Positions 21,553-23,308 of a stretch of DNA of 64,000 nucleotides are shown here, one piece after another. The notes under the pieces were generated by a model. It saw only the letters and a program-made list of their open reading frames with translations. It did no database searches and was not told the origin of the DNA. Where the stretch lies: the NCBI RefSeq assembly GCF_003334255.1, contig NZ_QOWU01000002.1, one strand, 5' to 3'. This DNA comes from Escherichia coli. GTDB taxonomy: Bacteria > Pseudomonadota > Gammaproteobacteria > Enterobacterales > Enterobacteriaceae. Made by a program: the position numbers and the translations under genes. How positions within the stretch are numbered: the stretch's first letter is position 1; each line of letters opens with the position of its first letter.

Positions 21553-22749
21553 ATGAAAACCTGGATATTTATCTGTATGTCCATAGCAATGTTGCTATGG
21601 TTTTTAAGTACGCTAAGACGTAAACCCAGTCAAAAGAAAGGCTGTATTGACGCCATTATACCTGCGTATAACGAAGGCCCGTGTCTGGCGCAGTCACTGG
21701 ATAATCTACTGCGTAACCCTTATTTTTGCCGGGTAATTTGCGTTAACGACGGCTCCACGGACAATACCGAAGCGGTCATGGCGGAAGTCAAACGCAAATG
21801 GGGCGACCGCTTTGTTGCCGTCACGCAAAAAAATACCGGTAAAGGTGGTGCGCTGATGAATGGCCTCAATTACGCCACCTGCGACCAGGTTTTTTTAAGT
21901 GATGCCGACACCTATGTTCCGCCCGATCAAGACGGAATGGGCTATATGCTGGCAGAAATTGAGCGCGGTGCCGATGCCGTAGGCGGCATTCCCTCTACTG
22001 CGTTGAAAGGCGCGGGTCTGTTACCGCACATCCGCGCGACCGTAAAGTTGCCGATGATTGTTATGAAGCGCACGCTACAGCAGCTCCTGGGTGGCGCACC
22101 GTTTATTATCAGCGGTGCCTGCGGGATGTTCCGTACTGATGTATTGCGTAAGTTCGGTTTCTCGGATCGTACTAAAGTCGAAGACCTTGATCTCACCTGG
22201 ACATTGGTGGCAAACGGCTACCGTATTCGGCAGGCGAATCGCTGCATCGTATACCCACAGGAATGCAACAGCCCGCGTGAGGAGTGGCGTCGCTGGCGGC
22301 GTTGGATTGTGGGATACGCGGTCTGTATGCGCCTGCATAAAAGACTTTTATTTAGCCGCTTCGGTATCTTCAGTATATTTCCTATGCTGTTGGTTGTGCT
22401 TTATGGCGTTGGGATTTATCTCACTACCTGGTTTAATGAATTCATCACCACCGGGCCGCATGGAGTGGTGTTGGCAATGTTTCCGCTTATCTGGGTCGGC
22501 GTAGTTTGTGTTATTGGTGCTTTTAGCGCCTGGTTTCATCGTTGCTGGTTGTTGGTGCCTTTAGCGCCGCTTTCCGTTGTGTATGTATTATTAGCTTATG
22601 CCATCTGGATTATTTATGGACTTATTGCCTTTTTTACTGGACGCGAACCTCAGCGCGACAAACCCACCCGCTATTCCGCACTGGTGGAAGCGTCAACCGC
22701 TTATTCCCAACCTTCTGTCACAGGAACTGAAAAACTATCTGAAGCTTAA
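21553..22749 (+). CDS. yaiP: family 2 glycosyltransferase with N- and C-terminal TM segments (synthase-like)
   Basis: 398 aa; IIPAYNEG...VNDGSTDNT...SDAD GT2 motifs, WRRWRRW segment, several C-terminal hydrophobic helices. Confidence 0.8.
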   Translation: MKTWIFICMSIAMLLWFLSTLRRKPSQKKGCIDAIIPAYNEGPCLAQSLDNLLRNPYFCRVICVNDGSTDNTEAVMAEVKRKWGDRFVAVTQKNTGKGGALMNGLNYATCDQVFLSDADTYVPPDQDGMGYMLAEIERGADAVGGIPSTALKGAGLLPHIRATVKLPMIVMKRTLQQLLGGAPFIISGACGMFRTDVLRKFGFSDRTKVEDLDLTWTLVANGYRIRQANRCIVYPQECNSPREEWRRWRRWIVGYAVCMRLHKRLLFSRFGIFSIFPMLLVVLYGVGIYLTTWFNEFITTGPHGVVLAMFPLIWVGVVCVIGAFSAWFHRCWLLVPLAPLSVVYVLLAYAIWIIYGLIAFFTGREPQRDKPTRYSALVEASTAYSQPSVTGTEKLSEA

Positions 22750-23308
22750 TGTTAAAGAGAAAAATATTCAGATTGCAGACCAGGTAATTATTGATGAAAC
22801 TGCAGGTGAAGTTGTTATCGGCGCGAATACCCGTATTTGTCATGGTGCCGTTATTCAGGGTCCGGTAGTGATTGGCGCAAACTGCCTGATAGGTAATTAT
22901 GCGTTTATTCGTCTTGGCACAATAATCAGCAATGGCGTAAAAATTGGTTTTGCCACCGAGATTAAAAATGCGGTTATTGAAGCGGAAGCAACGATTGGTC
23001 CGCAATGTTTTATTGCCGACTCGGTAGTTGCAAACCAGGCATATTTAGGCGCACAAGTACGTACCAGTAATCATCGTCTGGATGAACAGCCCGTGTCTGT
23101 TCGAACTCCAGAGGGAATTATCGCTACCGGATGCGATAAATTAGGTTGTTATATCGGGCAGCGTTCACGCCTTGGCGTACAAGTTATTATTTTGCCTGGG
23201 CGAATTATTTCCCCGAACACGCAACTTGGCCCGCGCGTGATTGTAGAACGTAATTTACCTACCGGAACTTATTCACTCCGACAAGAACTTATCCGTACAG
23301 GAGATTAA
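22616..23308 (+). CDS. yaiX: hexapeptide-repeat (LbH) acyl/acetyltransferase, intact; start uncertain
   Basis: Frame open from 22598; repeated [LIV]G hexapeptide pattern; no canonical start just after the yaiP stop, so the start may overlap yaiP or be non-canonical. Confidence 0.55.
   Translation: MDLLPFLLDANLSATNPPAIPHWWKRQPLIPNLLSQELKNYLKLNVKEKNIQIADQVIIDETAGEVVIGANTRICHGAVIQGPVVIGANCLIGNYAFIRLGTIISNGVKIGFATEIKNAVIEAEATIGPQCFIADSVVANQAYLGAQVRTSNHRLDEQPVSVRTPEGIIATGCDKLGCYIGQRSRLGVQVIILPGRIISPNTQLGPRVIVERNLPTGTYSLRQELIRTGD

Follow-up and report, generated by a model that had tools for sequence, protein, structure and literature searches.

A conserved ATG inside yaiP as the probable start codon of yaiX in Escherichia coli

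The sequence studied was a stretch of 64,000 nucleotides (nt) from Escherichia coli (assembly GCF_003334255.1, contig NZ_QOWU01000002.1), called the window below; its positions serve as coordinates throughout. It carries the glycosyltransferase gene yaiP and, overlapping its 3' end, the gene yaiX. Comparison with homologous loci points to translation of yaiX from the ATG at 22616, a reading to which we give a probability of about 0.7: the product would have 230 amino acids (aa), and the first 134 nt of its gene would lie in the +1 frame of the 3' end of yaiP. Judged from sequence, the junction of the two genes is most likely an ordinary but real long gene overlap.

21553-22749, plus strand: yaiP, coding sequence of a GT2 glycosyltransferase of 398 aa, with the stop codon TAA at 22747-22749.
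22616-23308, plus strand: yaiX, proposed coding sequence of a hexapeptide-repeat acyltransferase (left-handed beta-helix, LbH) of 230 aa, with the stop codon TAA at 23306-23308.
22616-22749, plus strand: out-of-frame overlap of yaiP and yaiX, 134 nt, the yaiX frame being +1 relative to yaiP.

An earlier note on this DNA had stated that yaiX has no canonical start codon near the end of yaiP, and this was borne out: beyond the yaiP stop the next in-frame start is the GTG at 22868. The frame is open well inside yaiP, as the note had said, precisely from 22595, after a TAG at 22592-22594, instead of from 22598. The two upstream ATG codons that it listed, at 22598 and 22616, are in frame and inside yaiP; a TTG at 22625, likewise inside yaiP, had been missed. 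Near-cognate codons of the kinds it named are also present in frame (CTG at 22739, 22727 and 22715, ATT at 22673 and 22703). The 80 codons of the yaiX frame from 22628 to 22865 include no ATG, GTG or TTG. These three make up 5.2% of the in-frame codons of the neighbouring genes, which gives a start-free run of 80 codons a probability of about 0.014; the run is unusual, not extraordinary.

The GTG (22868-22870, plus strand), the first canonical start past the yaiP stop, was rejected as the beginning of yaiX. A start there would delete 84 residues of the 230-aa form, including the family-invariant D60, G64, G69, C75, G82 and P83 and the first hexapeptide/LbH matches. The earlier note had allowed that the conserved protein might begin at this codon, which would have made yaiX a conventional shorter gene; conservation among the homologues begins upstream of it, at a pair of Trp codons:

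22682-22687, plus strand: TGG TGG, the invariant Trp-Trp pair of the ancestral family N-terminus (W23 and W24, invariant in 38 sequences).

Homologues at about 50% identity, from metagenomes, Pseudomonas, Acinetobacter and others, are 204-206 aa long and have the N-terminus M/V-W-W-R-E-L..., in which M/V-W-W matches H28-W29-W30 when aligned to the 236-aa frame. Since the conserved protein begins at Trp-Trp, the start of yaiX must lie upstream of this pair, inside yaiP.

The junction was compared in 15 enterobacterial-type loci and 5 distant loci. In the five distant loci yaiP ends in ...DKPTRYxxVVx-TGA and yaiX begins with (A/G)TG-TGG-TGG 11 nt before this stop, so that the genes overlap by 14 nt. 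The Arg codon of KPTRY is AGG in these loci (AGA in one) and forms a GAGG/AAGG Shine-Dalgarno sequence 8-9 nt upstream of the yaiX start. In 15 of 15 enterobacterial-type loci the same codon is CGN, and because of this change the ancestral Shine-Dalgarno sequence is gone in Enterobacteriaceae.

22669-22671, plus strand: CGC, Arg codon of the YaiP motif KPTRY and site of the lost Shine-Dalgarno sequence (AGG/AGA in distant homologues).

The end of yaiP has moved as well. In the distant homologues the stop codon falls where E. coli has GCG 22690-22692, and the E. coli stop lies 57 nt further downstream, the last 19 yaiP codons from 22690 being a lineage-specific read-through tail. Measured from Trp-Trp to the end of the yaiP stop, the interval is 32 nt in two loci (one of Salmonella, one of E. 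bugandensis) and 50-83 nt in another twelve, among them E. coli with 68 nt; the set leaves out Salmonella locus L046, whose stop was not located by the script. An ATG 2-4 codons before Trp-Trp is kept in four loci (Salmonella, E. bugandensis, Enterobacter and Superficieibacter) and a TTG in one Salmonella; at the old start position nothing but ATT or ATA is seen in E. coli, E. whittamii, Citrobacter and the loci related to them. All 15 enterobacterial loci share an in-frame ATG 21-23 codons before Trp-Trp, from which the frame is open. In the window this is ATG 22616, and it arises from the YaiP dipeptide Tyr/His-Gly (xAT GGA).

Selection on the two frames was examined in a codon alignment of the whole of yaiP from 14 loci, in which synonymous divergence is near saturation (pS about 0.74). 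Two parts of the overlap upstream of Trp-Trp behave differently:

22615-22644, plus strand: block under dual constraint, yaiP Y-G-L-I-A-F-F-T-G-R and yaiX M-D-L-L-P-F-L-L-D, with the start ATG at 22616-22618.
22645-22681, plus strand: linker of the N-terminal extension, yaiP E-P-Q-R-D-K-P-T-R-Y-S-A; yaiP constrained, yaiX residues free.

Ten-codon windows from the Tyr/His codon at ATG 22616 showed a third-position identity of 0.76-0.78 (rank 1-2 of 367); the mean for the gene is 0.42, with 0.30-0.50 in the other bins. Synonymous divergence was 0.46 in the overlap against 0.74 upstream. The Tyr/His codon at the ATG ends in T in all 14 sequences, and the other eight conserved Tyr/His columns are mixed, with T in 6-12 of 14. 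Among 22 fully conserved Gly columns, the two within the block are GGA in 14/14 and the 20 outside it are all mixed. Read in the yaiX frame, the uniform T belongs to the ATG, and each uniform A falls in the middle of a codon for Asp/Glu, residues 2 and 9 of M-D/E-L-L-P-F-L-L-D/E. In the five distant loci the codons of the block vary (CAC/CAT/TAC and GGA/GGC/GGT), and three of the five have +1-frame stops there. The constraint is missing in the loci with the ancestral start and is therefore a property of the lineage, not of yaiP as such. The excess synonymous constraint of the older frame is confined to the overlap, and conservation of the start codon and of the residues encoded in the new frame goes beyond what the old frame needs, as expected of a dual-coding overlap.

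Two other sources of synonymous constraint were considered and set aside: no promoter-like site was found in 22450-22900 that could serve as an internal promoter, and the predicted RNA fold of 22586-22700 was no better than those of shuffled sequences (z = +0.58).

Between Trp-Trp and the yaiP stop the yaiX frame has a ratio of nonsynonymous to synonymous divergence (pN/pS) of 0.37 (pS 0.69) and the yaiP frame one of 1.33; the last 19 residues of YaiP are therefore a read-through tail shaped by yaiX. In six loci without a canonical start near Trp-Trp, pN/pS was 0.22 for the whole of yaiX and 0.27, in the yaiX frame, for the 15 codons upstream of CTG 22727. As judged from these ratios, yaiX is maintained by purifying selection in lineages that lack a start near Trp-Trp.

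For each candidate start the energy of the duplex with the anti-Shine-Dalgarno sequence and the local minimum free energy (MFE) were computed, both in kcal/mol. None of the candidates scored has a strong Shine-Dalgarno sequence.

22616, ATG: duplex -3.1 (weak GGA); MFE -3.9, the least structured of all sites tested.
22598, ATG: duplex +0.9; MFE -6.5; not conserved outside Escherichia.
22673-22675, plus strand, ATT, a rival candidate as near-cognate start, formed by the 'AT' of the KPTRY Tyr codon and the next base: duplex +0.4; MFE -17.5, the most structured context.
22727-22729, plus strand, CTG, the start given in other RefSeq genomes by the Prokaryotic Genome Annotation Pipeline (PGAP; WP_024183734.1, 193 aa), GTG in Citrobacter: duplex +1.5; MFE -4.7; AGGA only 1 nt away.
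22715-22717, plus strand, CTG, the PGAP start in some RefSeq genomes (WP_002430650.1, 197 aa).
Start of yaiP itself, for comparison: duplex -1.9; MFE -8.8.

ATG 22616 is favoured because it is conserved, has the least structured surroundings and is preceded by a GGA that, weak as it is, is stronger than the Shine-Dalgarno sequence of yaiP, and because the curated K-12 annotation uses it. Repair of the interrupted gene yaiX' in K-12 leads to clumping, for which YaiP is required (EcoGene 3.0, PMC3531124), and this reading is further supported because the repaired gene is functional. From the anatomy of the junction, the N-termini of the homologues and the frame-specific selection, which are direct observations, we infer initiation by ribosomes at 22616.

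Several points weigh against this start. The middle of the extension (22645-22681) is without constraint in the yaiX frame: its residues differ there through changes that are synonymous in yaiP, and EPQRDKPTRY of YaiP is tightly conserved. Conservation of YaiP in part dictates the ATG and most of the open frame, and by our reading of the codons a synonymous change could create a +1 stop at only two of those in the block; because the open +1 frame is largely imposed in this way, it was not counted as independent support. Uniformity of the third position is also seen in the T of the KPTRY Tyr codon (15/15), and the ATT/ATA/ATG/TTG codon near Trp-Trp may matter as well. In the AlphaFold2 model of the 230-aa form, residues 1-26 have a predicted local distance difference test (pLDDT) score below 50, which is uninformative on folding of the extension, and the model gives no visible structural role for it. 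The Shine-Dalgarno sequence is weak, and a 2026 paper (PMC13058169) also notes none. A full-text literature search on yaiX and yaiP, which did not cover supplementary profiling tables, found no start-site evidence, whether from ribosome profiling or from N-terminal peptides.

Comparison of the loci suggests the following order of events at the junction. In the ancestral state, kept in Pseudomonas, Acinetobacter and several metagenome-assembled genomes (MAGs), the two genes would have been joined by a coupled overlap of 14 nt with a Shine-Dalgarno sequence derived from AGG. In Enterobacteriaceae the Arg codon would have become CGN, with loss of the Shine-Dalgarno sequence, and loss of the yaiP stop would have lengthened yaiP by 7-24 codons (19 in E. 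coli). The E. coli/Citrobacter group would have lost the start adjoining Trp-Trp as well (CAC now, with ATT three codons upstream of Trp-Trp), and initiation would have shifted to a pre-existing ATG 22 codons upstream, present owing to the Tyr/His-Gly of YaiP. Selection in both frames would then have fixed the first nine codons, MDLLPFLLD.

Of the alternatives in the earlier note (a long overlap, a rare start, translational coupling), the first is favoured here, from ATG 22616, and the other two fared poorly. A rare start is without positive support in this comparison. The candidate that survives best is ATT 22673 (I-P-H-W-W), which, alone or alongside ATG 22616, could act as a weak near-cognate start; the product would have about 211 aa and the overlap would be 77 nt. 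We consider this unlikely. Its position is ATG in four loci (Salmonella, Enterobacter and Superficieibacter among them), TTG in one Salmonella and always ATT or ATA in the E. coli/Citrobacter group. Both ATT and ATA are start codons of translation table 11, and the uniform T of the KPTRY Tyr codon forms part of the ATT. A conserved Ile/Met/Leu residue in a protein started further upstream would also explain this pattern, and a start here leaves the synonymous constraint at 22615-22644 unexplained. The ATT has no Shine-Dalgarno sequence (+0.4 kcal/mol) and the most structured context of the candidates (-17.5 kcal/mol). In E. coli the efficiency of initiation at AUU and AUA is about 1% of that at AUG, or lower, which also speaks against it. 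Two E. coli genes, infC and pcnB, have an AUU start. yaiX is like them in that its RefSeq models rely on a non-canonical start codon and ATT occupies the ancestral start position; it differs in having a conserved in-frame ATG upstream and an ATT without a Shine-Dalgarno sequence.

The CTG codons are improbable starts. RefSeq genomes annotated by PGAP use 22727 (193 aa) or 22715 (197 aa), and the codon at 22727 is GTG in the Citrobacter loci; CTG 22739, with AGGA 13 nt upstream (-4.3 kcal/mol) and lying 8 nt before the yaiP stop, could be used by re-initiation after that stop. Any of these starts would remove the invariant Trp-Trp and 10-19 further codons, and each of them is preceded by sequence on which purifying selection acts in the yaiX frame; the codons before 22727, with the pN/pS of 0.27, are unconstrained in the yaiP frame. 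The AGGA 1 nt from CTG 22727 is too close and CTG 22715 has none before it. Neither these two codons nor ATT 22673 has a usably spaced Shine-Dalgarno sequence, and ATG 22616 is conserved. CTG is a very poor initiator, which counts further against these starts. Taken together, this is an indication that the CTG-start models of PGAP are wrong and cut off coding sequence under purifying selection. The automatic RefSeq annotation was compared in three genomes, and the yaiX start was judged wrong in all of them. The choice of 22727 may trace to Citrobacter, where the codon is GTG.

Equally improbable is ATG 22598, which gives the 236-aa form of KEGG and of the 2026 paper (PMC13058169) and an overlap of 152 nt. 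No other ATG of the open frame precedes it, and both E. coli and E. whittamii have it; Citrobacter and most of the other enterobacterial loci lack it, the Tyr codon being TAC in 8/14. It has no Shine-Dalgarno sequence (+0.9 kcal/mol), and the yaiP synonymous sites from 22598 to 22615 are at baseline (0.39-0.48).

Least probable of all is that yaiX has no efficient start. In the E. coli lineage it would then be barely translated and decaying, or its only product would be a fusion of YaiP and YaiX, arising from +1 slippage at the T6 run (22630-22635). The lack of a strong start signal, the repeated insertion-sequence hits (IS2 in K-12, IS1 in another strain) and the TTT TTT A run in the overlap would fit. 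Against this, yaiX has a pN/pS of 0.22 in exactly these lineages, more than 4400 of the 5426 complete genomes of E. coli carry it intact, and its repair in K-12 gives a phenotype (PMC3531124). The T6 run is interrupted in 4 of the 15 loci (three with TTC TTT and one with TTT TTC), no fused GT2-LbH homologue is found among the 120 matches listed, and the constraint begins at ATG 22616 and not at the T run. The conserved slippery site and fused homologues that mark a programmed +1 frameshift were thus not seen here. The run itself lies in GCC TTT TTT ACT of yaiP and reads as the heptamer T TTT TTA in the yaiX frame; it is not in all loci, and no evidence was found that it promotes frameshifting.

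Translational coupling, the third alternative, was found only in the distant relatives with the 14-nt overlap. Their arrangement is that of the coupled short overlaps of the ATGA or 14-nt type, with a Shine-Dalgarno sequence in the upstream gene and a start 11 nt before the stop. In E. coli the yaiX start would lie 134 nt before the yaiP stop, and termination-reinitiation coupling therefore cannot deliver ribosomes to it. An out-of-frame ATG at the yaiP stop (TAATG; 22749-22787, plus strand) was tried as a frameshifted ancestral start and rejected: it opens a 12-codon reading frame (MLKRKIFRLQTR, then stop) that appears fortuitous, and it is not conserved, Citrobacter loci ending yaiP in TGA with no ATG there.

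Fukuda et al. and Palleja et al. reportedly traced long same-strand overlaps in prokaryotes to loss of a stop codon and/or of a start codon. Both would be seen here, yaiP having gained 19 codons after loss of its stop and yaiX 22 at its 5' end after loss of its start. Most long annotated overlaps are mis-predictions. The yaiP/yaiX pair differs from them in showing measurable constraint on both frames and in having living intermediate loci with both starts.

The start codon proposed here and the 134-nt overlap are identical to those of the curated K-12 pseudogene yaiX' (b4579, NC_000913.3, join 380844..381260, 382591..382872), which starts 134 nt inside yaiP, that is, at ATG 22616. The K-12 gene is split by IS2, at a site corresponding to about 22893, whereas the gene in the window is intact, and the annotation table states no reason for the start. 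What is new here is the comparative support for ATG 22616, the history of the overlap and the indication of an error by PGAP; the overlap itself was already in the curated annotation. Other gene callers give products of 230, 174, 148 and 146 aa, the KEGG form has 236 aa, and the over-expression study of 2026 (PMC13058169), in which the 236-aa form was described and the lack of a visible Shine-Dalgarno sequence remarked on, used forms of 236 and 71 aa.

Profile searches detected tandem hexapeptide repeats (Pfam Hexapep/LbH profiles) in YaiX: PF25084 at residues 47-148 (4e-10) and PF00132 at residues 66-99 (8e-9) and 101-134 (7e-4). The best match was of residues 47-210 to positions 233-393 of the 393 of TIGR03992 (E = 3e-36), with a score of 125 bits, below the curated cut-off of 292. 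This part of YaiX resembles the C-terminal LbH acetyltransferase domain of archaeal-type GlmU/sugar-1-phosphate nucleotidylyltransferase-acetyltransferases. Unlike the bifunctional GlmU-type enzymes, YaiX has no nucleotidyltransferase domain; its LbH domain stands alone, behind an N-terminus that is specific to the family and starts at Trp-Trp. The AlphaFold2 model has regularly spaced short strands at residues 58-190, with a mean pLDDT of only 64. By its profile matches YaiX is a predicted acyltransferase of the hexapeptide-repeat LbH type; its substrate was stated to be unknown (PMC13058169). Residue 100 of the 230-aa form in the window (about 22913-22915) is Leu, in the motif FIR-L-GT; at this position Pro is found in the representative of the E. 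coli cluster and in close relatives, and Ser, Gln or Gly in sequences further off.

On the plus strand of the window the order of genes is yaiS (20872-21543), yaiP (21553-22749), yaiX (ending at 23308) and yaiO (23310-24083), followed by frmRAB. YaiS is a PIG-L-type deacetylase, YaiP is most similar to PgaC/IcaA among the GT2 synthases and YaiO is an outer-membrane beta-barrel; the product of the yaiSPXO operon appears to be a cell-clumping surface polysaccharide (EcoGene 3.0). A 1-kb query comprising the yaiP-yaiX junction and the whole of yaiX was matched over 80% or more of its length at a single site in 4457 of the 5426 complete E. coli genomes. The gene is a recurrent target of insertion sequences: IS2 has entered it in K-12-derived strains, IS1 in strain SCEC020023.

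Some E. coli have a second, diverged yaiS-P-X-O-like operon (L047), with about 60% identity in YaiX; it has a plasmid-borne relative (P0051) and closely resembles the operon of an Ignatzschineria MAG (L009). Citrobacter braakii ATCC 51113 has two copies of the operon (L005 and L007). The second E. coli copy, the plasmid relative, the likeness to Ignatzschineria and the C. braakii pair suggest that the operon spread horizontally. In Enterobacter sp. PGRG2 the yaiX homologue is about 30 residues longer at the C-terminus and overlaps yaiO by 86 nt (L044, 2241-2326), a second long overlap within the same operon.

Other features were seen near the operon. A 39-codon open reading frame (MNYKAFTQIAIDLLSAKLCNCTQAIMTHIIASFLAFMFF; 21409-21528, minus strand), antisense to the 3' end of yaiS, matches the annotated small protein YkiC (b4731) of K-12 and of one PGAP genome. 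Just upstream of frmR lies a perfect 19-nt inverted repeat, ATATACTATAGGGGGGTAT at 24195-24213 and ATACCCCCCTATAGTATAT at 24229-24247, with 15 nt between the arms, which looks like an RcnR/FrmR-type operator with a G/C tract. Between yaiO and this repeat there are about 11 consecutive C (about 24131-24141).

At least five yaiX starts are in public records (236, 230, 197, 193 and 174 aa), besides shorter products, and the correct one is needed by anyone cloning or repairing the gene. Given the long overlap, synthesis of YaiX would depend on, or compete with, ribosome traffic on yaiP. The pair offers a clean, datable case of the origin of a long out-of-frame overlap, in which a Shine-Dalgarno sequence, a start and a stop would have been lost and an ATG recruited that exists only through the Tyr-Gly of YaiP; the intermediate loci are still extant. 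We suggest tentatively, rating it somewhat below even odds, that the 22-codon enterobacterial extension of YaiX is recent de novo coding sequence, overprinted on the yaiP tail after loss of the ancestral start and Shine-Dalgarno sequence, the first nine residues of which would already be under purifying selection. The living intermediate loci of Salmonella, Enterobacter and Superficieibacter have both the ATG at the old position and the new one. If the extension did arise in this way, some species may make two isoforms of YaiX, and the peptide may have a new function, for example in tying YaiX to the membrane glycosyltransferase YaiP.

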